A DNA stretch of 64,000 nucleotides, taken from Mobula hypostoma. Taxonomy: Eukaryota. The position numbers were made by a program, and so were the translations under genes. Position 1 is the stretch's first letter, and each line of letters opens with the position of its first letter. The notes under the pieces are model-generated. The model saw nothing but the letters and a program-made list of their open reading frames with translations, was not told where the DNA came from and searched no databases. Positions 1,930 through 37,908 of the stretch are shown here, piece after piece. The DNA lies in contig NC_086108.1 in assembly GCF_963921235.1 (NCBI RefSeq), positions 77,254,001 to 77,318,000 of the forward strand, read 5' to 3'.

Positions 1930-2905
1930 TCATGACCACAATGTTCTGGTGAAACCTTTCACCATGTTTGACATTGACACTGCCAATATTTGCAGGGAAG
2001 TCGTCTAAGTGGGAATGCAGAAATTGGATCTTTAGTGATATGTTGCACTTCATGGTTTTGTATGCCTGAAGCATGTTGTCCACCAGCTGCATGTAGTTTG
2101 GTGGCCTGTAGATACCAAGAAAATTTTCAATACCATCCTTGAATGCCTTCCATGCAATTTTCTCCAGTCCCGCTAGAAGTTCTTCAAATTGCCTCTCACT
2201 GATGACATGTTTTGTGGACCAACAAAAATGCCTTCCTTTATCTTGGCATCAGTTATTCTAGGAAACATCTGCCTCAAATATTGAAATACTTCACCTTGCT
2301 TGTTCATCACTTTCAGAAAATAATTCATAACGCACAGTTTTATATGAAAAGCAGGCAAAAATACCTTTGTTGGGTCTACAAGTAGTTTATGGGCCACACA
2401 TTTCCGTATTGGAACCAACTGCATATGGAGTGGGCTACCCTTTTTAATGCAATGAGGTTCTTTAGCATAGCGTATCTGAGCTGCATTCCTCGTCACAGCA
2501 CTATTACTTTCAGATTATCAAAGGTGTTTCTGTTATAGTTGCTGTACTGTAAGTGTTTCAATAAGACTTCCAAATTTTAGTATTGAAGGGTGACATTGTT
2601 GTTTTGTAGCAGCACAGCTTTCAGGGTTAACACTGAAGGATCAATAAAAAGACACCATTGTTGTGGATAATGCTGGCAAACCAAAGCATGCCCGGGCAGG
2701 TCTGGACAAGATACAAAACTTTTTAGCTTTCATTGCAGGCAATATTTTAAATGACTTGAATAATGAATTGAAATAACAAATATAGGGGTGATTCCAAAAA
2801 GTAATGTGTAATAGGGAATTTTCATGGTGATTTTTTTGATCAGCAGCGCAAAATCCATAAGATACACCCAAAAGTATTCAGGAAGCAAAATCTTTGTTGT
2901 CCTGT
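1930..2905 (-). mobile_element. Chapaev3-like (CMC) DNA transposon relic
   Basis: LPAFHIKLCVMNYFLK, AKIKEGIFVGPQ and SLKIQFLHSHLDDFPANIGSVNVKHGERFHQNI resemble Chapaev3 transposase motifs; terminus-like sequence near 2900. Confidence 0.7.
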
Positions 2906-3099
2906 ATAACTAATCAGAAAAGGCCATTGCTGCTGTATGGTCATCCCTGCTAGGACCCCCTTCCAATCAATTTTAGTAAGCTTCTCTCTTATGCTTCTTT
3001 AGTTAAGCCTAGCTTTACTCTCTCAAATTTGCAGGGTGAATTATTGCATATTATGATCACTGTCCCCTGAGAGTTCCTTTACCTCCGATTTCCTAACTA

Positions 3100-13702: not shown

Positions 13703-14900
13703 GGTTCAAGTTCAAGTTTAGTTATCATTTAACCATGCATGAATATAGCCAAACAAAGCAGCATTCCTCCTGGGCCAAGGTGCCGAACATGTTACCAACA
13801 GATTACAGCACCCGGCACATTGCACCTAGCACAAATAGCATATATGATTACGATTTCAGAAAAACATATAGTCACAAAGTAAATAAAATATAGCCCAAGT
13901 CCCCGAGTGGCCTGACTGTGGAATTATAGTCCTGATTCAGCTAGATCCAGACCGGAAAGCAGAACTGAGTGAACACCAGAGGGCAGTACTGAGTGAACAC
14001 TGGAGGGCAGTACCGAGTGAACACTGGAGGGCAGTATTGAGTGAACACTGGAGGGCAGTACCGAGTGAACACTGGAGGGCAGTACTGAGTGGACACTGGA
14101 GAGCAGTACCGAGTGAACATCATAGGGCAGTACCGAGTGAACACCGGAGGGCAGTACTGAGTGAATACTGGAGGGCAGTACCGAGTGAACACTGGAGGGC
14201 AGTACCGAGTGAACATCGGAGGGCAGTACTGAGTGAACACCAGAGGGCAGTACTGAGTGAACACTGGAGAGCAGTACCGCGTGAACACTGGAGGGCAGTA
14301 CCGAGTGAACATCGGAGGGCAGTACTGAGTGAACACCAGAGGGCAGTACTGAGTGAACACTGGAGGGCAGTACCAAGTGAACACCGGAGGGCAGTACTGA
14401 GTAAACACTGGAGGACAGTACTGAGTGAACACTGGAGGGCAGTACTGATGGGAGGGTCAGGCCCCAAACCCAAGTCTGGATACCAGTGCACCACACAGAG
14501 GTTCCCCCACACCACCTCGCTGCCTTCACCTCAATTGGTTTAGTCCTCACCACAATCGAGGCAACACAGCTGCGTCATCATTGGTTTCACCAATGAACCA
14601 GTGAACTGGACTTCCACTATTCTACATTATCAATGTCCAACAGGGTCTTATGATCACAATAAAAATGTCCCAGACAATCACTTGCACTGCACCCTGTCCA
14701 GCGGTACACGATAACAGTACACATTAGAGTCCAACTCACTCGCTATCAAGCAACTCACAGATGGGGTAGTCCTGCAGTATTTGATGTCCTTATTATCCAG
14801 CAGTGACTTACAATCATAAAAAAGACATACAACACAAACAAGTGCACCTTTGATTGGACCCAGAGTGGCTTCTGGGTATGAGCACACCACAGTCTTACGA
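13703..14900 (-). mobile_element. non-coding retroposon or LINE 3' UTR carrying a minisatellite
   Basis: (TTCAAG)n tail at 13705-13718 on the plus strand; far boundary uncertain. Confidence 0.5.
13960..14448. repeat. 24-bp minisatellite, 20 full units plus 9 bp
   Basis: Consensus CAGTACYGAGTGAACACTGGAGGG, read directly; no indels. Confidence 0.97.
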
Positions 14901-18230: not shown

Positions 18231-18374
18231 GAAAGAACTACTCTCTAGGGATTTTACGAGCTTTCTTTCCACCCCTCTTTCATGTTTACATTTCTATGGA
18301 GCTCCATGTTCATCCACTCTCTGAACTCCTCTAGCCTTCCTCATTTATCAGCTGAGACAATTGGATTCATTAAC

Positions 18375-18621
18375 TTTATATTTTGTCACTCCAAAACATA
18401 AAATCTAATCAAAAGGAAAACAAGGGAGTCTGAAATATGAGTCTACCTTTGTCTTTTACTTTAAGTGAGGCCTGCACGTATCATATGGCGGCACAATGAT
18501 GTAAGCTATTTACATACTTTTACAGATAACTTGCAGTGCATTATTTAAACAAACAAGAATGCTTAATTAAACAATATATTTACAATAACAGTCAAATATT
18601 ACTGTTATTAAATACACAACA
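18375..18621 (-). repeat. Gypsy 3' LTR
   Basis: Colinear with 21614-21838; PPT adjacent at 18622-18635. Confidence 0.85.
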
Positions 18622-18949
18622 TTCTTCCCTACTTAGCTATAAACTCCACTTAATATAGAATGCATCTTAACTACATACACTATACAATATAATGCAACTA
18701 TTATCCATACATCCACAGCACAGTAAATTTTAAGTTGACCCATTCAGGACTAAAATGTAATTGTAGTGGAGGCTTTCTTATTCTTGTGGGGAAACATCAT
18801 TCCTGACAAGGTGAGGTCACTCTGCTTTGCAGGTGAGACTTGTGGCTGAAAACAGTCTCAGATTCTGGGACCACCTCCGTGGTGGTTGTAGGAGTTGACT
18901 CTGAGACTTCAGGAAGTGGTTCTGACAACTCTGCACACCTTTCTTCTCG

Positions 18950-19773
18950 TTTCTTTGGATTTTCTGTTTGGATCTACTTCGATCCCTGCTTCTCTCCTGG
19001 TCTCGGCTTCTTTCTCCCTCTTTATTCTGCTTTTGATCACTATTACAGTCTTGCTCAAGGTCTTTTTCTCTCTATGCTTTCTTTCCTTTTCAACTTCCTG
19101 TCTTTCATTTTCTCCCCTTTCTTTGTCTTCTAGTTTCTTGTGAGTATCCCTGAATTTGCTTATCCCTCAGGAAATTTGGTTTTGTTTTTCTTAATTCCAG
19201 TTCCATAGCACTTATGTCATCCTCCTCTTTATTTTCCTTTTTCTTCCTCTAATTTGTGCATCTTGATCTTGGGAAGGTGCATTTATTTCACTGAAGTATT
19301 CTCTTATTAATCCTTCTATTGCTCCCTTTATGATCTGATCTCTCTTAGTTTTCTCATCCACAATATCATCTGACAAATCCTCTGTTTTTGTATCTCCATT
19401 GACTCCTTTCTTTTTGTTCTACCATTCATCCAGCTGGGTTTTGGTCTTGGCAGCTTTTTGTCTCCCACTTGAAGTTCATGCAATAACCTTAATACACACA
19501 GAGTAGATTCTCATTCTTTGTACTCACAATAGCTGAATGCTTGCAACTTTCCTGAGGCTCCCTGAACTCTCTTGTGGTTTAAAACAGAGAAATAAAATTG
19601 CAGTCAACTGCTTAATTGACAGAAGCTTTTTCAGGTATGTTGCCTACTAAAACTATTGAGGCAGACCACTGATTTCGTTACTTTCATGATTCCTCTGAGC
19701 AGCATTGTCCTTCATTGGTCCAATATGCTTCCCACTAGGCAATAGTTTATGGTGTACACCATGGAGACAGTTG
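18950..19773 (-). pseudogene. RBM25: intronless RBM25 fragment (RRM to ER/RS-rich region) inside the Gypsy element
   Basis: Manual minus-strand translation: TVSMV..GKHIGP, VLVGNIPEKAS, KRVQGASGKLQAFSYCEYKE*ESTLCVLRLLHELQVGDKKL, AKTKTQLDEW, RDQIIKGAIEGLIREYFSEINAPSQ, ISKFRDTHKKLE, RSRDRSRS; matches recalled vertebrate RBM25; has stops and frameshifts. Confidence 0.92.
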
Positions 19774-20374
19774 TGGCATCATCCAGTGCCTTTCTTAATT
19801 CACTTTCCGTTGACTCTATTGCAGGGGATGTCTCATGCAACTGGTGGATGGATCTCCAATTTAGTTGTAATTTTCTTAGCCACTCAAAACCCGCAACGCC
19901 GACTCTTCTGTTTTTACCACATTCAACCCTAATGTGACTTGCTGATTATTGTATTTCACCGTTGCAAATGTCATTCCCACAGAAGTTATCTTTTCTTCTG
20001 TACAAGTTCTCAACTGCATATTTGTAGGCTTCAGTTAAGTATCTTTGAAATGCCATTCAAACTCATCTTATGAAATGACTGAAACAACTAAGTCAACATC
20101 TAATTCCAATTTAAGCAATATGCCGTTCACTTCTGGTGTAAGCCATATTACTCATCTGTTGTTAGTTTTCACATGGTAAATCTCAAGACTACTCTGCCCT
20201 ATGTCAGTCTCATCATTATTAGATTTTTTCATAAACATTGTGCAGATTAGTGTTCTTTTTGAAACTGCAACTTGACTTTTTATCTTTTTCTCTTCCCTGT
20301 GCAGTCCATTTATTTTTATCTGTCCAACATGCCCTTTGTGTGTGTTCTACCTTGTTGCATTTTCTGCAAGTTTC

Positions 20375-20762
20375 ACCTTTTTTCCTTGGAGCGACGAAGG
20401 AAGAGAGGTGACCTGATAGAGGTGTATAAAATGATGAGAGGCATTGATCATGTGGATAGTCACAGGCTTTTTCCCAGGGCTGAAATGATTAGCACGAGAG
20501 GGCACAGTTTTAAGATGCTTGGAAGTAGGTACAAAGGAGATATCAGGGCTAGGTTTTTTATGCAGAGAGTTGGGAGTGCGTGGAATGGGCTGCCGGTGAT
20601 GGTGGTGGAGGCAGATACAATAGAGTCTTTTAGGAGACTCCTAGACAGGTACATGGAGCTTAGAAAAATAGAGGGCTATGGGTAAACCTAGGACATGTTC
20701 GGCATAGCTTTGTGGGCTGAAAAGCCTGTATTGAGCAGTAGGTTTTCTATGTTTCTATGTTT
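20375..20762 (+). mobile_element. CR1 3' fragment nested in Gypsy
   Basis: FSLERRRKRGDLIEVYKMMRG...AWNGLP; (TTTCTATG)n tail. Confidence 0.9.
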
Positions 20763-21613
20763 AAATCTGCGTTTGTCTGGTGAGCCCCTGCCACAATGGT
20801 AACATCATTTATTCAGCCAGGGCCGATTTCTGTTTAGATGTTGCAACTCTGTTCATGCTCATTTTCATTCCTGACTGCAACACAAACTGTGTCTCTGCAG
20901 TTTTCATTGATACAGTTATTCCAACTGCTCTTTTAAATGTTAAGTTGCACTTCAGTTAGGAGCTGCTTTTGAATTCTTTCTTGTAAGATTCTGCAAACTA
21001 AATGATTTCTGAGTGCATGGTTGAACCCATCAGTGAACTGACAATGCTCAGAAAATCTCTTTAATTCAGCCACGTATGCTGAAATGGACTCCCCTTCCTT
21101 TTGATTTTTCTTATGAATCCCAAAGCATTTTGCAATCAAAAATGGTTTCAGTTCTAAGTGTTCATGCTTCATTTTCACAAAGCTCATTTTGGCTGGTTTA
21201 GCTGGAGAAGTTAAATTTCTAGGCAAATTATATGCCTTTAAATCCAATACAATCAGCAAAATTGGTACTTGTTTCTCATTAGCTATTTAATTTGCTTTAA
21301 AATATCGCTCAATTCGGTCAGTAAAAACAAATCAGTTATCCGCTGTGCAATCAAACAGGTGAATCTGTCCAATATCACCAGCCATTTCTGTTCTTTTTCT
21401 AGATGATTATTACCACCTAGTACTCTCTGTTTATGAACCTGTGAATTCTTCTGTTTTCTGGTTTTCGTTTACTCCGCCATCTTTCCTTTTGTGAAGAAAA
21501 CATGCTGCTCTGAAGAAAAAAATGTGCAGCACTTTTGTTTTTCTTGATCACCTTGCTGCACTTCAATAGGTAGGTAGTTGTCTCAGGTTTGTTTAAAATG
21601 TACTATTTGCCAC

Positions 21614-21838
21614 TGTTATGCATTGTAATTTGAAAACATTAAACTAATTAAACAAAAGACACGGGAGCCTGAAATGCAAACCTAACTTCATCTTTTACTG
21701 TAAGTGAGGCGTGCACATATCATACGGTGCATGATGACATATGCTACTCACATAATTTTTACAAATAACCCACAATGCATTATTTAAATGAATCAAACAA
21801 TATATTTGCAATGTTACTGAAATATTAAACACACATCA
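21614..21838 (-). repeat. Gypsy 5' LTR
   Basis: TG...CA ends; colinear with 18375-18621. Confidence 0.85.
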
Positions 21839-23459
21839 TTAACTTAATTCATTACTGAGAAAGATACTGATTTTTCAGTGGCCCAATTTCAATCTCCAAT
21901 CAAGAGTAATGAGTCAGCTGTCCAATTGATGTGATTTGTTGGCCATGTGCTTGTATTTTCAAACATAGGACCCTAAGTCAGAAACTTTAAAACATGTGAA
22001 CACAATTATGTTGACAAAGGCTCTTGTACTAAAGGAGATCATACAGAAGATTTGACATATTGGAGTGTTTCCCCACCATGCCAACAGAGAAATTTAAATG
22101 CGTATTAGTTGGTTTGAGCAGTAGCAAGGACCACCATAGCAAAACATTGGAATCATCAACAGTTTGTCCTGGTCCTGCCAGATGGTATTCATCATTTGCT
22201 AGGTGAAAACTAGAAATGTTTCAGCCTCTTAAGTCTGAGTCTCCAATCCATAACTCATGACTGTGCACAAAAACTTATGAAATAAGGGGAAGACAAAGAA
22301 AGTTATCTTAAAATCTAACAATTATAAAACAGCACCAGACTAGATAGGTTATTTGTGCAATACTATTCGTTCCTTTATGGATGATGAAACCATTTATAAA
22401 TCAGAATATTTAAATACATCCAGTGAACTAACTGACCAACATTGGCCAATGATATATCCTTTCTTTAGGGGGTAAACATACCATTTTATAAATCAACCAG
22501 CTTGTTGGCTAGATGATGTTACTCTGATGGGTTAATCAGTAAAATTGTTCCAGAGGGAATTCCTGAGAGCACTATACTTAGGAAGTTGCTAGTCTGTTGA
22601 TTATATTGTTATAACAGTCGGTTTGAGACAAGATTCAGCTTGGAACTGGTGTTAGGTTTGGAATATACTTTGAGAAACAGTAGAGGATAGAAGGGTAAAG
22701 CAGCACATGGAGATGGTGAAATAACAACATGGTTTATTTGCATGTGAATTAAGGAGCAAATTCACTGGTGGGATAATTGTTGAGGCCATTAGGATGTGGG
22801 AGGATAGAGACCTTTGATTATGACAGCTGAATCACACTGCTGTACTTTTTACATAACTCATCATGTAATTTTGCAGGAGAAATAGTTATTAATACGTGGA
22901 CAATGAGTCCTTTGTCTGATAGAAAAGATGCTCCAGCAATTATGAGTTATTTCATCTTACGTTGGCCTTAGCAACAATGTATCTTTGTTCTTCAAAATGG
23001 TATACTTTGCAGATCCTTATAGACAAGACATTTAACACTGAAAGGTCTTTGCCATCAGGTTTTAAATAAGGATGATAACATGGTATAACTGATAAGGCCC
23101 TGGGGATCTTCATGCTATTCAGACAGCTGACAGTTGCTTTGTTACTGGCCATAGTGATAGCAATGTTGATTTTGGTTTTGAGGCCAGGAATAGACAGAGA
23201 ATAGTAAATTGATACAGAGTTCCTGAAAAGATACTTATTTCAGTTAAAAGAAATATTCTGTACTTCCACAGAGGTTATGATGTCCATTGGGATGTCTTGC
23301 ATATTTGAATTAAATACTCAGGTAACTTTAGGTCTCTGCAGTAAAAAACGACATAATTTATGACAGTGCAATTTTACCCCCTAAGTAAGTATTTGAGAAT
23401 GATTTGTGTTTGCATGCTGAGCCTGGTGACATAGTTTAACAAGTGCAAATTGATTTTAA

Positions 23460-24458: not shown

Positions 24459-27400
24459 GAGATTACTTATTACATACACCTGTTAGGGTGCATTCTCCAG
24501 ATACCTTTTTAGGTAACCGTAGCCTTCAGCCAGGAGCAGATGTCATCAGGTGGTTCACAACCTTTACAGAGTGTCTTGACTCTTAACCACGACACTCTCC
24601 AGTTGGTGGGCCAGCAGTGGTGGCCAAATCACTGCCCATCTGCTCCTGGCTTCCAGCTCCCCTCCTCTCACCAACTCCAAATCCAACAAGAGGCTCGTTC
24701 TGCCTCTTCCTCCATCCTACGAGCTGGTTGTTTTTTGCTCCTTTCATCCAGGCCCAGAGCTGACAACAACTGCCATGCTGATTTGGCTGGGAAACCTCTG
24801 CAGCCGATCTCCACAGGGAACAACCATGCCTGCCATCCCTTGTCTTTACACTCCTGCACTAAGGGCTGGTACTTCAAGGCCTTTATCTCGTGGGCCTCTT
24901 CCCATCCCTTCTCCCATGGCACAGTCAGCTCAACCAGAATTATTTTCCTGTCTTCAGTTGACCACAGTACAATGTCCGGGCATAGGGTTGTGTGCACCAC
25001 ATCCGGGAACTGCAGCCTCCTTCCTACAACGACCCTCATCTCTCAGGACCTGACCATTGGCAGCAGATTGGGCTTTTGTTGTTTGGTTATGAAAGGCCTG
25101 GCTCCCTCTTTGATGAAGGTGATGGCCTTCCTCAAATCTGTGCCAGCTGTCCTCTTCTTGCATCTCTCCTGCTCTAGTGTGTCAGCAAGAGCCAGAAGCA
25201 CCTTATCATGGCGCCACCTATACCATCCTTGAGTTAGAGCTGTTTTACACCTGGACAGTATATGAGCCAGTGCCCCCTTTGACCACAGAGCTTACAGTTC
25301 GGGTCCTCTCTCATCCCCCATGTGTACAGATATAATGGCGAAGGAAGGGTGTCATACACGGATCGCAAGAGGAAGGAAATACGGAAGGGCTCCAGTCTCC
25401 ATAACTCTGCCCATGAGATCTTGCACTTGGGCAGATCCCATTTCGTCCAGGCACCCTGGGACCCTTGTTCCACTGCCTTTGAAATCCGCTTCTCTTCCTC
25501 ACGGATCCGTACTTCTCCCCGTATCATGTCTCACCTGTTCGTTATGCTTGCGTTTCCCCATTTCTGGAAGTGAACTGAGCCGAGGCCCTGCCGCCCGATG
25601 CAGGGGTTGCCGATGAGATCTCGCAGCTTCAGAGAACACACTGCCTCCTCCACAGCTGTGTTGGCTGCCCACTTGCGCCCAGTTCTGGTTGTAACACCTG
25701 CTTGCTTTACCAAGACGTCATTGGAATCTCTCAAGCTTAATAAGGCTCTGCATTTTGCCACCTTGAATTCCTCCACAACAGATGACAGGGGAAGCTGCAG
25801 TTGCCCAGATTGAATATAGAGGCCCACTGAAGAGAAGCGTGGGGGAACTCCTAACCATCTCCACAGGTGCTTGTTGGTTTTCCTCTCGATGCCCTCTACG
25901 GCCGTCATGGGGAACTCATAAAGTGTGAAGAGCCAGAGAAGCCTGGGCAGAATGCCGTATTGGTACAGCCAGGTCTTGAATTTACCAGGAAGTCCAGATT
26001 AGTCGATCTTCTTCAGCCTGTCTGCTTCACAGCATCGGAGACATTGGCCCCATCTGTCAGTGACACATTAAACCACTCTCTCAAGCATTTTATTGGGTTA
26101 TCTTCGATGGAAGGGATGACCTCACCCTGAACTTTGAGGCTAAACTTGCTGGTGACTTTGCCCTTTCTGATCACCATACACCTGGACCTCTTGGCCTTGA
26201 AGGACATCCTCACCCAAGTGGCTACATTGTCCAGGGTATCCAATACCCATCTTTCTTGGACATGTGACACAGTCGTTATAGTGATGTCGTCCATGAACCC
26301 TCGTAGAGCCGGCTGAACAATACCCGACTCCAGTGTCGGGCTGCGGGTTGCATCTTCTGCTGCTGATAACAGGAGGTTCATTCCCATAATAAATAGGGTG
26401 GGGGAGATGGTGCACCCTGTTGGAATCCCCTTCTGGAGGTCCTGCCACCTAGTTGTGAAATGGGCTGATGTAAATCTGAGTTTGAATCCTCCTAGGTAGC
26501 TGGTGATCACGTCTCAAATAGCCACTGGGATGTAGTAGTGGTCAAGTCCTTCTAGGATGAGGTCATGTGGAGTAGACCCGTAGGCGTTCACGAGGTCGAA
26601 CCAGACAACTGTTAGGTCGCCTTTTTTCTGCTTGGCATCACAGATCAAATGGCTAATCATTGAGGTGTGTTCCAGACACTCAGAAAAGCCTGGAATACCG
26701 CCTTTCCGAATGGATGTGTTGATATAGCAGTTCTGCATCATGTAAGAAATCAGCCTTCTTGCGAGCACAGAAAAGAAAATCTTACATTCCACACCTAGGA
26801 GAGAAATTGTCCTAAACTGGGCAATTGTGGAAGAGTACAACGAGTACAAGCCCAGTTCATCCAGTCTTTCTTCATATGAAAGTCCTGCCATCCCAGGAAT
26901 CAATCTGGTGAACCTTCTTTGTACTCCCTCTAAGGCAAGGATGTCTTTCCTCAGATTAGGGGATCAAAACTGCACACAATACTCCAGGTGTGGCCTCACC
27001 AAGGCCTTGTACAACTGCAGTAGTACCTCCCTGCTCCTGTACTCGAATCCTCTCGCTATAAGTGCCAGCATACCATTCGCCTTTTTCACCGCCTGCTGTA
27101 CCTGCATGCCCACTTTCAATGACTGGTGTATAATGACACCCAGGTCTCGTTATACCTCCCATTTTCCTAATTGGCCACCATTCAGATAATAATCTGTTTT
27201 CCTATTTTTGCCACCAAAGTGGATAACTTCATATTTATCCACATTAAATTGCATCTGCCATGAATTTGCCCACTCACCCAACCTATCCAAGTCACCCTGC
27301 ATCCTCTTAGCATCCTTCTCACAGCTAACACTGCCACCCAGCTTTGTGTCATCCGCAAATTTGGAGATGCTACATTTAATTCCCTCATCCAAGTCATTAA

Positions 27401-29107
27401 TATATATTGTAAACAACTGGGGTCCCAGCACTGAGCCTTGCGGTACCCCACTAGTCACTGCCTGCCATTCTGAAAAGGTCCCGTTTATTCCCACTCTTTG
27501 CTTCCTGTCTGCTAACCAATTCTCCATCCACATCAATACCTTACCCCCAATACCGTGTGCTTTAAGTTTGCACACTAATCTCCTGTGTGGGACCTTGTCA
27601 AAAGCCTTTTGAAAATCCAAATATACCACATCCACTGGTTCTCCCCTATCCACTCTACTAGTTACATCCTCAAAAAATTCTATGAGATTCGTCAGACATG
27701 ATTTTCCTTTCACAAATCCATGCTGACTTTGTCCGATCATTTCACCGCTTTCCAAATGTGCTGTTATCACATCCTTGATAACTGACTCCAGCAGTTTCCC
27801 CACCACCGACGTTAGGCTAACTGGTCTATAATTCCCCGGTTTCTCTCTCCCTCCTTTTTTAAAAAGTGGAGTTACATTAGCCACCCTCCAATCCTCAGGA
27901 ACTAGTCCAGAATCTAACGAGTTTTGAAAAATTATCACTAATGCATCCACTATTTCTTGGGCTACTTCCTTAAGCACTCTAGGATGCAGACCATCTGGCC
28001 CTGGGGATTTATCTGCCTTCAATCCCTTCAATTTACCTAACACCACTTCCCTACTAACATGTATTTCGCTCAGTTCCTCCATCTCACTGGACCCTCTGTC
28101 CCCTACTATTTCTGGAAGATTATTTATGTCCTCCTTAGTGAAGACAGAACCAAAGTAGTTATTCAATTGGTCTGCCATGTCCTTGCTCCCCATAATCAAT
28201 TCACCTGTTTCTGTCTGCAGGGGACCTACATTTGTCTTTACCAGTCTTTTCCTTTTTACATATCTATAAAAGCTTTTACAGTCCGTTTATATGTTCCCTG
28301 CCAGTTTTCTCTCATAATCTTTTTTCCCCTTCCTAATTAAGCCCTTTGTCCTCCTCTGCTGAACTCTGAATTTCTCCCAGTCCTCAGGTGAGCCACTTTC
28401 TTTGAATTAGATAGATTGTACACTATGGCTGTGAGTGAGTCGATCACTTTGTGTACTGGACCTGCTAAAGCAACTTCCAGGATGCCGTCTAGATCATCAT
28501 CGAACTGCATCCAGGCGACGTTGTCTGATGATCTAGGCCATTTGATCCTGTCTTTCCTTGACAAATGGATTGAGGTAGACGAAGAGGAACTCACTAGGTT
28601 TGTTGTTTGGTGCTGAGGTGACTCAAGTGTGGAGAGATCTTCAGCTCTGTGGGTTGCTTCCCGGCTGGAATTCTCCTTCGTCTCACCGGACACTAAGTCT
28701 GTGCGTTGCTCTTAGGTCACCATTGATCCACATCTAGACTTCCTCTGGTGTATCTTGAGCCCGCTGATCTTTTTGCAGACTTTCCTGCAATGACATCTTA
28801 CCATGAACTCCTCTCCGGTCAGTTTTGTTTGCTTTAGCTTCCTTGTAGTCGTGTTTCCTATCCTGGCTGTTGCCGGTATGACCATCCTGTTGAGTCTCTC
28901 ATCCCCCCCACCCCTCGGGAGACTCTGGGGGTATTGCTCTTCGTGTTCAGTCGTAGCTTGAGTGGTGCCCTCTTGCGAGTGCTGCCCACAAGGTTGCTAG
29001 CCTTGTGAGCCCGTGCCAGTCTTTCCTGGAGGTCAGCTGTCTCTCTGGTGTCACCAACCTTCCTTGGTTGCCATCCAGTCTTTCCTGGAAGGCACTGGTA
29101 CAACCCA
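24459..29107 (-). mobile_element. HERO-like non-LTR element with restriction-like endonuclease, both ends present, decayed
   Basis: N-terminal CHCRKVCKKISGLKIHQRKSRC zinc finger (~28730-28804); RT FRTISLL, WFDLVNAYGS, KGIPTGCTISP, FMDD; CKLC..H...C knuckle; PDIVLWS...ELTVPWE...KALKY RLE. Confidence 0.88.
26838..28401 (-). mobile_element. young CR1 internal fragment inside HERO
   Basis: ORF 27150-28199 (SGVPQGSVLGP, KFADDTKL); nearly identical to 31705-33270. Confidence 0.95.
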
Positions 29108-30012
29108 GAGATTACTTGTTACATACACCTGTTAGGGTGCATTCTCCAGATACCTTATAAGGTAACCGTAGCCTTCAGCCAGGAGCAGATGTCATCAGGT
29201 GGTCATCAACCTTCACAGAGTGTCTCGACCCTTAACCATGACACTCTCCAGTTGGTGGGCTGGCAGTGGTGGTCAAATCACTGCCCATCTTCTGCTGGCT
29301 TCCAGCTTCCCTCCTCTTGCCTACTCCAAATCCAACAAGAGGCTCGTTCTGCCTCTTCCCCCATCCTACAAGCTGCTTGTTTTTTGCTCCTTTCGTCCAG
29401 CCCCAGATCTGACAAAAACCGCCATGCTGATTCGGCTGGGAAACCCCTGCAGCCGATCTCCACAGGGAACAACCATGCCTGCCATCCCTTGTCTTTACAC
29501 TCCTGCACTAAGGGCTGGTACTTCAAGGCCTTTCTCTCTTGGGCCTCTTCCCATCCCTCCTCCCATGGCACAGTCAGCTCAACCAGAATTATTTTCCTGT
29601 CTTCAGATGACCACGGTACAATGTCCAGGCGGAGGGTTATGTGCACCACATCCGGGAACTGCAACGTCCTTCCCACATTTACCCTCATCTCCCAGGACCT
29701 GGCCGTTAGCAGCGGTTTGGGCTTTGGTTGTTTGGTTATGAAAGACCTGGCTCCCTCTTTGATGAAGGTGATGGCCTTCCTCAAATCTGTGCCAGCCGTC
29801 CTCTTCTTGCATCTCTCTCGCTCTAGTATGTTAGCAAGAGCCAGAAGCACCTTATCATGGCGCCACCTATACTGTCCTTGAGTTAGAGCTGTTTTACACC
29901 CAGACAGTATATGAGCCAGTGTCCCCTTTTGACCACAGAGCTTACAGTTTGGGTCCTCTCTCATCCCCCATGTGTACAGATGTATTGGCGAAGGAAGGGT
30001 GTCATACATGGA
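29108..30012 (-). mobile_element. second, 5'-truncated HERO copy in tandem
   Basis: ORF 29278-30009 with CCHC and RLE; colinear with 24459-25363. Confidence 0.9.
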
Positions 30013-30755
30013 TCATGGGGTCCAAATCCATAGCTCTCTGAAAATACCCATTCAATGTTCAAAGTTCAAAGTAAATTTATTGTCAAAGTACAGATATATC
30101 ACCCTGCAAGTAGATAGGCTGGTAAACAAGGTATATGGCATTTTTGCCTTCATTGGTCAGACAATTGAGTTTAAGAGTAAGGAAGTCATGCTGCAGTTGT
30201 ATAGAACTTTTGCTAAGCTGCATTTGGAGTATTGCTTTCAATTCCGATCATCCCTTTACAGGAAGGATGTGGAGGCTATACAAATGTGCAGAACTGGTTT
30301 GTCAGCACACTGCCAGGATTAGAGAATACCAGCTATGAGGAAAGGTTGAACAAACTTGGGTTGTACTCCCTGGAGCATTGGAGGCTACCAGTAGACAAGA
30401 TAGAAGTTTATTTAATTATGAGAGGCATAGATAGGGTAGACAGTCAGAATCTTTTTCTCCAGGTGCGAGTTTCAAGTACCAGAGGACATGCATTTAGGGT
30501 TAGAGGAAAATAATTTAAAGGAGTTGTGCAGGGCAGGTTTTTCATACCAGGGAGAGGTAGGTGCCTGGAATGGTTTGCCAAGGGTGATGGTGGAAGTAGT
30601 GCTGAGATATCTGTTGGATAGACACATAAATATGCAATGAATGGAGAGACGTGGATCATGTACAGACAGAGGAGATTCAGTCTAATTTCAGCACTGTGTT
30701 TGGTGTGGACAACATGAGGCAAAGAGTTGATTCCTGCACTGTACTATTTTATATC
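30010..30755 (+). mobile_element. old CR1, right part to 3' end
   Basis: DHGVQIHSSLK...LHLEYCFQF...TRGHAFRVRG. Confidence 0.85.
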
Positions 30756-31525
30756 TAGTGGCAGTTGAAACTAAATGCCATGTGGTGGAAAACAGTGGTG
30801 TTGGGGGGAAAATGGAAATGATGGAAAAAAAAAGAAAAACATACAACACAACAGAAATTAATAAGAATTTATTTTAAAGACCCTGGGTTTTGTTGTCATT
30901 TCTGGCACCAATTGATAGTTTTATCAGATGTGCCTTTTGATCAAAGTACACAGGAATCAAACAAAACCACATCATGAAATTTTATATTGCAGAACCTCGT
31001 TTTCAAAAAAATGTTGCTAAAAATTTGAACAATTGACATTTTTCATCTCTTTATGCTCTCCTGTACAAAGAAGGTATGAGTTTACATACTGTTTTCCATA
31101 GGGAATCTTCCCTCTCACTCTCTAGTCAAATCCTTGATCTTTATGACTCTAATAAATACACATCAAAGGAGCTCCTGTTGAAGTCAGGAGATAAGGTGAG
31201 TCCATGAAACCTATTATAAGTTAAAACAAATTTAGTGACAACCTAGCTTTTCCCTTAAACCCAATCATCAGTAGGAAACCTTAGCAAGCTGATTAATAAA
31301 GAACTTTTAGTACTCCTACAATTTTTCATAACTGTTGATCTTTGAGTTCATGGATATATAATCATTTTATATAACAATACGATATCAAAGCAGCCTTACA
31401 CATAAGGTGAGGCTAAAATTTAATTTGAAGTAATAAATAAGCAGCTAGCGACTTAAAGTCTGCTTCTATTCAGGGAAAGGAGTCTGAAATTCCAAGTATC
31501 CCTTTCATCTGGTAGATTAAAGGAC

Positions 31526-33685
31526 ACTTAAAGGATTGACGGTGGATATGCAATGGCAAGCATTTAAAGGTTGCATGGATGAACTACAACAATTGTTCAT
31601 CCCAGTTTGGCAAAAGAATAAATCAAGGAAGGTAGTGCACCCGTGGCTGACAAGAGAAATTAGGGATAGTATCAATTCCAAAGAAGAAGCATACACAGTA
31701 GCCAGAGAAAGTGGCTCACCTGAGGACTGGGAGAAATTCAGAGTTCAGCAGAGGAGGACAAAGGGCTTAATTAGGAAGGGGAAAAAAGATTATGAGAGAA
31801 AACTGGCAGGGAACATAAAAACGGGCTGTAAAAGCTTTTATAGATATGTAAAAAGGAAAAGACTGGTAAAGACAAATGTAGGTCCCCTGCAGACAGAAAC
31901 AGGTGAATTGATTATGGGGAGCAAGGACATGGCAGACCAATTGAATAATTACTTTGGTTCTGTCTTCACTAAGGAGGACATAAATAATCTTCCAGAAATA
32001 GTAGGGGACAGAGGGTCCAGTGAGATGGAGGAACTGAGCGAAATACTTGTTAGTAGGGAAGTGGTGTTAGGTAAATTGAAGGGCTTGAAGGCAGATAAAT
32101 CCCCAGGGCCAGATGGTCTGCATCCTAGAGTGCTTAAGGAAGTAGCCCAAGAAATAGTGGATGCATTAGTGATAATTTTTCAAAACTCGTTAGATTCTGG
32201 ACTAGTTCCTGAGGATTGGAGGGTGGCTAATGTAACCCCACTTTTTAAAAAAGGAGGGAGAGAGAAACCGGGGAATTATAGACCGGTTAGCCTAATGTCG
32301 GTGGTGGGGAAACTGCTGGAGTCAGTTATCAAAGATGTGATAACAGCACATTTGGAAAGCGGTGAAATCATCGGACAAAGTCAGCATGGATTTGTGAAAG
32401 GAAAATCATGTCTGACGAATCTCATAGAATTTTTTGAGGATGTAACTAGTAGAGTGGATAGGGGAGAACCAGTGGATGTGGTATATTTGGATTTTCAAAA
32501 GGCTTTTGCCAAGGTCCCACACAGGAGATTAGTGTGCAAACTTAAAGTACACGGTATTGGGGGTAAGGTATTGATGTGGATGGAGAATTGGTTAGCAGAC
32601 AGGAAGCAAAGAGTGGGAATAAACGGGACCTTTTCAGAATGGCAGGCAGTGACTAGTGGGGTACCGCAAGGCTCAGTGCTGGGACCCCAGTTGTTTACAA
32701 TATATATTAATGACTTGGATGAGGGAATTAAATGCAGCATCTCCAAGTTTGCGGATGACACGAAGCTGGGTGGCAGTGTTAGGTGTGAGGAGGATGCTAA
32801 GAGGATGCAGGGTGACTTGGATAGGTTGGGTGAGTGGGCAAATTCATGGCAGATGCAATTTAATGTGGATAAACGTGAAGTTATCCACTTTGGTGGCAAA
32901 AATAGGAAAACAGATTATTATCTGAATGGTGGCCGATTAGGAAAAGGGGAGGTGCAACGAGATCTGGGTGTCATTATACACCAGTCATTGAAAGTGGGCA
33001 TGCAGGTACAGCAGGCGGTGAAAAAGGCGAATGGTATGCTGGCATTTATAGCGAGAGGATTCGAGTACAGGAGCAGGGAGGTAGTACTGCAGTTGTACAA
33101 GGCCTTGGTGAGACCACACCTGGAGTATTGTGTGCAGTTTTGGTCCCCTAATCTGAGGAAAGACATCCTTGCCATAGAGGGAGTACAAAGAAGGTTCACC
33201 AGATTGATTCCTGGGATGGCAGGACTTTCATATGAAGAAAGACTGGATGAACTGGGCTTGTACTCGTTGGAATTTAGAAGATTGAGGGGGAATCTGATTG
33301 AAACGTATAAAATCCTAAAGGGATTGGACAGGCTAGATGCAGGAAGATTGTTCCCGATGTTGGGGAAGTCCAGAACAAGGGGTCACAGTTTGAGGATAAA
33401 GGGGAAGCCTTTTAGGACCGAGATTAGGAAAAACTTCTTCACACAGAGAGTGGTGAATCTGTGGAATTCTCTGCCACAGGAAACAGTTGAGGCCAGTTCA
33501 TTGGCTATATTTAAGAGGGAGTTAGATATGGCCCTTGTGGCTACGGGGATCAGGGGGTATGGAGGGAAGGCTGGGGCGGGGTTCTGAGTTGGATGATCAG
33601 CCATGATCATAATAAATGGCGGTGCAGGCTTGAAGGGCCGAATGGCCTACTCCTGCACCTATTTTCTATGTTTCTATGTTTCTAT
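31526..33685 (+). mobile_element. young 5'-truncated CR1 LINE
   Basis: Uninterrupted ORF2 remainder, intact 3' UTR, (TTTCTATG)n tail. Confidence 0.95.
31536..33587 (+). CDS. CR1 ORF2 reverse transcriptase portion (endonuclease missing; not a complete gene)
   Basis: 683 open codons: NYRPVSL, QHGF, YLDFQKAFAKV (conserved D changed to A), GVPQGSVLGP, FADD. Confidence 0.85.
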   Translation: MTVDMQWQAFKGCMDELQQLFIPVWQKNKSRKVVHPWLTREIRDSINSKEEAYTVARESGSPEDWEKFRVQQRRTKGLIRKGKKDYERKLAGNIKTGCKSFYRYVKRKRLVKTNVGPLQTETGELIMGSKDMADQLNNYFGSVFTKEDINNLPEIVGDRGSSEMEELSEILVSREVVLGKLKGLKADKSPGPDGLHPRVLKEVAQEIVDALVIIFQNSLDSGLVPEDWRVANVTPLFKKGGREKPGNYRPVSLMSVVGKLLESVIKDVITAHLESGEIIGQSQHGFVKGKSCLTNLIEFFEDVTSRVDRGEPVDVVYLDFQKAFAKVPHRRLVCKLKVHGIGGKVLMWMENWLADRKQRVGINGTFSEWQAVTSGVPQGSVLGPQLFTIYINDLDEGIKCSISKFADDTKLGGSVRCEEDAKRMQGDLDRLGEWANSWQMQFNVDKREVIHFGGKNRKTDYYLNGGRLGKGEVQRDLGVIIHQSLKVGMQVQQAVKKANGMLAFIARGFEYRSREVVLQLYKALVRPHLEYCVQFWSPNLRKDILAIEGVQRRFTRLIPGMAGLSYEERLDELGLYSLEFRRLRGNLIETYKILKGLDRLDAGRLFPMLGKSRTRGHSLRIKGKPFRTEIRKNFFTQRVVNLWNSLPQETVEASSLAIFKRELDMALVATGIRGYGGKAGAGF

Positions 33686-36074: not shown

Positions 36075-36310
36075 CATTACACAACACCCAGTACAAAGTA
36101 CAACGTTTGTAGCTGATACCATAAACTGCTCTAAAAAGCCATCATACAGGCTTTCTACAAATTCCCTCTCATGGGATCCAGATCTAAACTGATTTCCCCA
36201 ATCTACCTGCATATTGAAATTCCCCATGACTATCATAATATTGCCCTTGTTACATGCGTTTTCTATCTCTTGTTGTAATATATATCCAGCATCCAGACTA
36301 CAGTCCATAG

Positions 36311-37908
36311 TTCCCACACCCTGCACTTCCCGTTTCTACCTCCTACCCAAGATCCACAAACCTGCCTGTCCTGGCCGACCTATTGTCTCAGCTTGCTCCT
36401 GCCCCACCGAACTCGTTTCTGCATACCTCGACACTGTTTTATCACCCCTTGTTCAATCCCTTCCGACCTATGTTCGTGACACTTCTCACGCTCTTAAACT
36501 TTTCGATGATTTTAAGTTCCCTGGCCCCCACCGCTTTATTTTCACCATGGATGTCCAGTCCTTATATACTTCCATCCCCCATCAGGAAGGTCTCAAAGCT
36601 CTACGCTTCTTTTTGGATTCCAGACCTAATCAGTTCCCCTCTACTACCACTCTGCTCCGTCTAGCGGAATTAGTCCTTACTCTTAATAATTTCTCCTTTT
36701 GCTCCTCCCATTTCCTCCAAACTAAAGATGTAGCTATGGGCACCCGTATGGGTCCTAGCTACGCCTGCCTTTTTGTTGGGTTTGTGGAACAATCTATGTT
36801 CCGTGCCTATTCTGGTATCTGTCCCCCACTTTTCCTTCGCTACATCGACGACTGCATTGGCGCTGCTTCCTGCACGCATGCAGAACTCGTTGACTTTATT
36901 AACTTTGCCTCCAACTTTCACCGTGCCCTCAAGTTTACCTGGTCCATTTCCGACACCTCCCTCCCCTTTCTAGATCTTTCTGTCTCTGTCTCTGGAGACA
37001 GCTTATCCACTGATGTCTACTATAAGCTTACTGACTCTCACAGCTATCTGGACTATTCCTCTTCTCACCCTGTCTCTTGCAAAAACGCCATCCCCTTCTC
37101 GCAATTCCTCCAACTCCGCAGCATCTGCTCTCAGGATGAGGCTTTTCATTCTAGGACGAGGGAGATGTCTTCATTTTTTAAAGAAAGGGGCTTCCCTTCC
37201 TCCACTATCAACTCTGCTCTTAAACGCATCTCCCCCATTTCACGTACATCTGCTCTCACTCCATCCTCCCACCACCCCACTAGGAATAGGGTTCCCCTGG
37301 TCCTCACCTACCACCCCACCAGCCTCCGGGTCCAACATATTATTCTCCGTAACTTCCGCCACCTCCAACGGGATCCCACAACTAAGCACATCTTTCCCTC
37401 CCCGCCTCTCTCTGCATTCCGCAGGGATCGCTCCCTACACAACTCCCTTGTCCATTCATCTCCCCCATCCCTCCCCACTGATCTCCCTCCTGGCACTTAT
37501 CCGTGTAAGCGGAACAAGTGCTACACATGCTCTTACACTTCCTCCCTTACCACCATTCAGGGCCCCAAACAGTCCTTCCAGGTGAGGCATCACTTCACCT
37601 GTGAGTCGACTGGGGTGATATACTGCGTCCGGTGCTCCCGATGTGGCCTTTTATATATTGGTGAGACCCGACGCAGACTGGGAGACCGCTTTGCTGAACA
37701 TCTACGCTCTGTCCGCCAGAGAAAGCAGGATCTCCCAGTGGCCACACATTTTAATTCCACATCCCATTCCCATTCTGACATGTCTATCCACGGCCTCCTC
37801 TACTGTAAAGATGAAGCCACACTCAGGTTGGAGGAACAACACCTTATATTCCGTCTGGGTAGCCTCCAACCTGATGGCATGAACATCAACTTCTCTAACT
37901 TCCGCTAA
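36311..37908 (+). CDS. Penelope RT and GIY-YIG endonuclease (partial, open)
   Basis: FYLLPKIHK, PGRPIVS, TMDVQSLYT, AMGTRMGP, RYIDD, VIYCVRCSRCGLLYIGET; the first ~32 codons of the tracked ORF come from flanking CR1. Confidence 0.88.

Follow-up and report, generated by a model that had tools for sequence, protein, structure and literature searches.

A dead Gypsy copy carrying spliced RBM25 mRNA in place of its polymerase core, and the amplified chimeric family to which it belongs

How does part of a spliced host mRNA come to lie inside a long terminal repeat (LTR) element, at the place where the element should carry its replication enzymes? The question is raised by a minus-strand locus in the window, the whole 64,000-nt stretch of Mobula hypostoma DNA analysed here. 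The initial annotation had read this locus as a Gypsy element in which a captured RBM25 fragment took the place of the pol core, and the peptides it named are all present in minus-strand frames. Our analysis confirms that the locus is a dead Gypsy (Mag-like) copy with RBM25 mRNA replacing the reverse transcriptase (RT), RNase H and integrase core. Positions 18370-21843 hold, in minus-strand order, a target-site duplication (TSD), 5' LTR, gag, protease, linker, the RBM25-like stretch, integrase tail, polypurine tract (PPT), 3' LTR and the second TSD copy, as follows.

21839..21843, minus strand: left TSD copy, GTTAA (TTAAC on the plus strand)
21614..21838, minus strand: 5' LTR, 225 bp, with TG...CA ends
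21603..21613, minus strand: degenerate stretch resembling a primer-binding site (PBS), TGG..., directly after the 5' LTR
20230..21385 (end approximate), minus strand: gag, broken by stops and frameshifts, with two CCHC knuckles
20933-21286, minus strand: capsid-like part of gag, 53% identical to fish Gypsy polyprotein P0122
about 20381-20759, plus strand: LINE 3' fragment, which we take to be CR1-like, a later insertion inside gag
19779..20180, minus strand: broken stretch of aspartic protease and the linker that leads to RT; identity to the pol-bearing relatives L050-L053 is 76-81%
19772..19778, minus strand: 5' switch point, in frame; its TGCCACA occurs both in the Gypsy linker and at the end of RBM25 exon 3
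18940..19778, minus strand: spliced RBM25 mRNA piece, decayed, without the PWI domain
18940..18948, minus strand: 3' switch point; its GAGAAGAAA occurs in both the integrase tail and RBM25 exon 11, and the join is out of frame with the tail
18745..18939 (end approximate), minus strand: remnant of the integrase C-terminal tail
18622..18634, minus strand: PPT
18375..18621, minus strand: 3' LTR, 247 bp
18370..18374, minus strand: right TSD copy, GTTAA

The element integrated as a unit, with both LTRs (~72% identical to each other) inside a single GTTAA duplication, which is read assuming the loss of 1 nt at the 3' LTR end. The LINE fragment in gag is private to the window copy and absent from the other copies compared. 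A single frame of the fish polyprotein P0122 runs from gag through two zinc knuckles and the protease into the start of RT. Both the chimera and relatives L050-L052 pass from the integrase tail to the PPT and 3' LTR in no more than ~320 nt, and env was not encountered there. Pfam searches of the window open reading frames gave no match above the cut-off, and neither the RRM piece nor a decayed RT frame had a match in the PDB.

Elsewhere the window holds further repeats. A 571-aa open frame at 36193-37908 (plus strand), presumably Penelope-like, has an RT and a GIY-YIG-like end and looks young. Positions 24513-30012 and 27150-33587 contain nested elements that we take to be LINEs, with pieces of an element bearing a restriction-like endonuclease motif (minus strand) and near-identical, presumably CR1-like RT frames, one of 378 aa and one of 688 aa, that lie on opposite strands. 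At 13887-14574 there is a tandem array whose 30-bp unit can be read through in three frames.

The identification of the insert as RBM25 holds on two counts. Its RRM piece, with the stop read as X, matches RBM25 proteins at 75-84% identity, the best being a protein of the shark Heptranchias (E 2e-13), and the window insert is 85.1% identical over 824 columns to the spliced sequence of an intact parent gene on another contig (C1), a sequence that is itself an open RBM25 frame. The insert joins nine parent exons spanning 29 kb, namely exon 3, a 48-nt cassette exon and exons 4, 5, 6, 7, 9, 10 and 11 (numbers that we take to follow the human gene); it comprises the last 10 nt of exon 3, the cassette exon, the RRM exons, Arg/Glu/Asp-rich exons and the first ~28 nt of exon 11. 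That the source was spliced, as initially proposed, is borne out by the exon junctions: six out of eight are cleanly crossed in the window insert, with 14-16 of 16 bases matching at each, while one of the remaining two was lost to a 43-nt deletion and the other is degraded. The captured mRNA measured about 1,070 nt, and the window copy is short of about 230 nt of that. Of 11 candidates for the RBM25 C-terminal region, 3 proved to be matches; because these are parent exons only, all on contig C1, we consider the parent to be single-copy, with no free 3'-anchored retrocopy seen in that search. A search for the PWI family turned up a different pair of genes, presumably SRRM1 and PRPF3, and not RBM25.

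The cassette exon is an observation in its own right. It lies at L049:4586-4633 (minus strand, contig C1), in frame between RBM25 exons 3 and 4. We rejected a reading of these 14 upstream codons as a retained intron, and hence as read-through capture: the 48 nt are bounded by an acceptor and a donor of their own, as in an exon, and it is exon 3 that contains the junction with the element. The 14 residues compared are identical in the Heptranchias RBM25 protein, and the exon was seen in 1 of ~120 RBM25 proteins screened by motif; it is possibly specific to cartilaginous fish.

The switch points were defined against pol-bearing relatives. The four relatives listed above part from the window copy exactly at 19772 and continue from the linker into RT. 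In L050 and L051 we recovered the Ty3/Gypsy domain order protease-RT-RNase H-integrase, with RT_RNaseH over the cut-off and a weak integrase-core match (rve, E 8e-4); the RT of the decayed pol-bearing copies had no Pfam or PDB match. L050 carries ~2.5 kb of RT, RNase H and integrase between the same two points, which confirms that these domains are missing from the window copy at the insert: about 2.5 kb or more of pol was replaced by the RBM25 piece. The breakpoints, initially placed at ~19773 and ~18950, fall at 19778-19772 and 18948-18940, and both are exonic. At the 5' switch, the 7 shared nucleotides read Ala-Thr in the frames of both the linker and exon 3, so that the fusion is in frame, and in natural copies reading frames of 281 and 284 aa remain open across this junction, with an RRM_1 match. 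The overlap at the 3' switch, between RBM25 exon 11 and the integrase tail, is 9 nt long and out of frame; it is based on one fully aligned relative, L050 (L052 gives 8 nt). Random sequence pairs reach 7 nt at a frequency of 6.5e-4 and 9 nt at 7.5e-5, although this null may be too lenient for the A/G-rich sequence at the 3' switch.

The account that we favour, at a probability of roughly 75%, is that one double template switch gave rise to a non-autonomous element that rode the burst of its helper with RBM25 as a passenger. A particle of an active Gypsy (Mag-like) element would have taken up one RBM25 mRNA, and during reverse transcription RT would have jumped from element RNA to the mRNA and back to element RNA at the two short shared stretches; it is the anatomy of the junctions that points to two such switches in a particle. 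The RT, RNase H and integrase core would have been swapped in this way for the mRNA piece. Because the product would have retained both LTRs, the PBS, the PPT, gag and protease, a helper could have copied it, and the founder was presumably able to translate Gag-protease-RBM25. The RT and integrase of the helper may then have copied the hybrid repeatedly in trans, in the same burst, to an estimated 2,000-3,000 copies.

Junction anatomy alone does not fully separate RT switching from DNA repair patched with cDNA. Microhomology likewise marks DNA repair junctions, and the genome is LINE-rich. An origin at the DNA level would have an RBM25 cDNA enter a genomic Gypsy copy by way of a LINE or the repair of a double-strand break, its flanks being lost through microhomology and the product being amplified afterwards; in mouse zygotes, capture of spliced mRNA at DNA breaks is reported (PMC4516963). 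We nevertheless judge this route improbable. The marks of a LINE-made processed pseudogene, namely an mRNA 3' end, poly(A) and a flanking TSD, are lacking: the insert stops inside coding exon 11 with no poly(A) at its 3' end, as initially noted, and the sole TSD lies outside the LTRs, with none flanking the RBM25 insert itself. The C-terminal search saw only the exons of the parent, and the route requires more steps than two switches.

The initial annotation further suggested that the chimera may belong to an amplified family carrying an RRM, and the genome supports this on a large scale. Searching the genome with the insert returned 2,830 first-look candidates (40 scored), and element sequence flanks the insert on both sides in 27 of 29 other loci picked by the insert. 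All 39 aligned copies are 83-89% identical to the parent RBM25; the start of the cassette exon is reached in 33 of them, and 32 of these 33 have the same linker junction. A 22-nt pattern for the chimeric 5' junction (up to 2 mismatches) gave 1,112 matches against 3 in the control, and the corresponding parental-type pattern gave 2,434 against 0, so that about 31% of junction matches are chimeric. Exact matches sampled among those listed run into RBM25 in 26 of 26 chimeric cases and into RT in 10 of 10 parental-type cases. Since the chimeric pattern recovers 24 of 45 known insert-picked copies (and 0 of 4 pol copies, the parental pattern finding 0 of the 45), the chimeric family should number near 2,100 or more; protein searches with short queries returned 2,606-3,093 candidates. 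We estimate a total of 2,000-3,000 copies, and at least 1,112. A SUDS3 cargo query of the genome at a strict threshold gave 0 matches, with 150 of 331 candidates scored.

Among 10 copies with both ends, 7 have a 5-bp TSD matching at 4-5 of 5 bases, every one different, which indicates that the copies integrated one by one; of the other three, one TSD matches at 2 of 5 bases and two have damaged ends. The amplification implies that the hybrid would have been transcribed from its LTR as one chimeric RNA. Dispersed copies without pol, each with its own TSD and co-existing with an autonomous partner, are what is expected of a non-autonomous LTR family. Segmental duplication, or many independent captures, in place of retrotransposition of one chimera would be compatible with a protease-linker tree in which the chimeric copies form no clade (10 changes, as in shuffles). 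This tree is poorly supported, with 2 of 42 inner branches starred, and the copies have both junctions in common, along with some 25 fixed differences from the parent, while their TSDs and flanks differ across many contigs; such origins are therefore largely refuted and now seem extremely unlikely.

The family and its relatives also vary in structure. The pol-type copies L051 and L052 are internally deleted, with about 1.75 kb from linker to tail against 2.5 kb in L050, and the 2,434 copies with a parental junction are consequently not all full length. In shortened chimeric sublines (L088-L103, L024, L026, L029, L039-L043 and L058) the end of the RRM region, at mRNA position ~610, is joined directly or nearly so to the integrase tail, and these joins run through A/G-rich overlaps. 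L055 (minus strand) carries a 575-bp tandem duplication of linker plus RRM region; the head-to-tail units are 84% identical, an age that fits an origin in reverse transcription or soon after. The integrase tail is expanded to about ten 51-bp tandem units at L002:856-1427, and at L025:989-1245 hardly anything separates an LTR from the RBM25 cassette exon after it, which would suggest a deletion of gag and protease.

The chimeric and pol-bearing copies amplified in one shared burst. Their protease-linker tree (33 chimeric and 12 pol rows, 13 of 58 having been dropped for short alignment) is a star in which the two kinds are interleaved, with a median end branch of 0.12, and it says neither for nor against monophyly of the chimera. 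Eight well-aligned LTR pairs give K2P distances of 0.19-0.29, which are rough values, as the alignments extend into the flanks. Divergence in the insert is about 0.09 per non-CpG site and about 0.3 for CpG transitions, as in methylated neutral DNA. At the slow rates of elasmobranchs, this would correspond to an age between some tens of millions and more than a hundred million years. Decay after insertion has been neutral, with pN/pS about 1: private changes (transitions/transversions) occur at 0.053/0.018 per synonymous and 0.055/0.018 per non-synonymous site, and stops arise at a nearly equal rate. These equal rates, together with the stops and frameshifts of the window copy, agree with the initial description of the chimera as decayed.

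Did the cargo contribute to this success? The founder might have made a Gag-protease-RRM polyprotein, and the RRM itself, a long open frame (through RNA stability) or host-like sequence (as a shelter from silencing) might have raised copying. The in-frame 5' junction and the open frames across it speak for this, as does the chimeric share of junction matches. Over the positions covered, gag-protease has no majority-shared stop among the 39 of 43 copies with matches, and among 45 copies the RRM has no shared frameshift except a homopolymer slip in 3 copies. Of 16 junction-picked copies, 8 are interrupted; in 8 of the 8 that reach the tail, the RRM exons are kept and Arg/Glu-rich sequence is lost. 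The fixed differences between family and parent, which are unpolarised, show a mild synonymous excess (23 against 16.4 expected, P 0.07), with 9 transversions among the synonymous ones against 3.5 expected (P 0.009, post hoc and likewise unpolarised).

Each of these points has a plainer counterpart. An in-frame junction has a chance of 1 in 3, the A/G-rich repeats in which the deletions lie would be expected to lose sequence in any case, and constrained evolution of the parent accounts for the synonymous differences, the total excess being not significant. Sublines are marked by non-synonymous changes (at codon 5 for 12 of 34 copies and at codons 194-195 for about half) or by a 1-nt frameshift that follows the RRM, at one position in 8 of 45 copies, and no annotated protease-RRM fusion protein appears among the best 120 of 162 matches, of 154-492 aa. 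The star tree, almost without inner branches, gives little power on selection during amplification. Selection on a Gag-protease-RRM fusion is thus unsupported, and a useful cargo is unlikely. RBM25 was probably a passenger: sublines shed parts of it freely, and all copies decayed neutrally after insertion.

The RBM25 family has uses beyond the locus. For one captured gene, the parent, the family of helpers and the two switch points can all be read, which permits direct tests of whether cargo or reading frame affects the success of an element. The capture also dates a host mRNA isoform, since cells with an active element included the 48-nt cassette exon in this mRNA, and the many neutrally decaying copies can serve for rate estimates. 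A caution follows for annotation: RBM25-like matches in such genomes are transposon copies and not a gene family.

How does the chimera compare with known systems? In acutely transforming retroviruses, an in-frame gag-onc fusion replaces pol and the virus depends on a helper; in read-through capture of oncogenes, the 5' junction often lies in an intron. The initial annotation likened the locus to such capture, and the likeness holds for the layout, namely an in-frame gag fusion in place of pol and helper dependence. No selection on the cargo was found; the RBM25 chimera also lacks env, and both of its junctions are exonic. That it is the counterpart of a gag-onc virus, forming particles with a host splicing-factor RRM instead of RT and carried by this cargo to thousands of copies, is a doubtful proposition.

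The initial annotation knew of no description of such a case, and we found none of an RBM25-carrying Gypsy family in the literature searched; Repbase and Dfam lay outside that scope and may contain the family under a plain name. RBM25 has 0 mentions in the main text of the manta genome preprint and 0 in the main text and 12 of 14 supplements of the river stingray genome paper. The element itself resembles Mag C in its short LTRs, whose ends, TGTTATGT...ACATAACA, fit the motifs TGTNATRT / AYANAACA given in the consulted part of PMC3601003; from these terminal motifs we provisionally assign it to the Mag A / Mag C clade of Ty3/Gypsy.

Gene-carrying LTR elements are known from several lineages. 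Maize Bs1 and other plant elements likewise hold pieces of host genes where element coding sequence should be, although Bs1, according to the portion of PMC13317346 consulted, joins three genes and is reported to be transcribed and translated, whereas the chimera here carries a piece of a single gene and shows nothing to suggest that it functions at present. Human FAM8A1 in HERV-K and the mouse IAP retrocopies, as cited in the consulted sections of PMC5131818, also place vertebrate mRNA between LTR-element sequences with microsimilarity; these have retroviral carriers and are single cases, in contrast to a family of thousands. The closest parallel comes from the LTR-mediated retrocopies of Tan et al. 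(2016, Genome Res 26:1663, PMC5131818, in the sections consulted), in which a partial intron-less mRNA replaces an internal part of the element's open reading frame, between both LTRs and without poly(A), with microsimilarity (median 6 bp) at both switch points. The re-amplified cases there amount to a few insertions, nine fly retrocopies having 18 insertion sites and two of them more than one site; the RBM25 chimera, old and fixed in a cartilaginous fish, has at least 1,112 and probably 2,000-3,000 copies, a scale two orders larger. The mechanism is thus known and there is no evidence of function, and it is the scale of amplification that is exceptional: the same sections propose, on a handful of fly insertions, that LTR-made retrocopies can persist through further non-autonomous cycles, and the RBM25 family represents that step in a vertebrate, on a very large scale.
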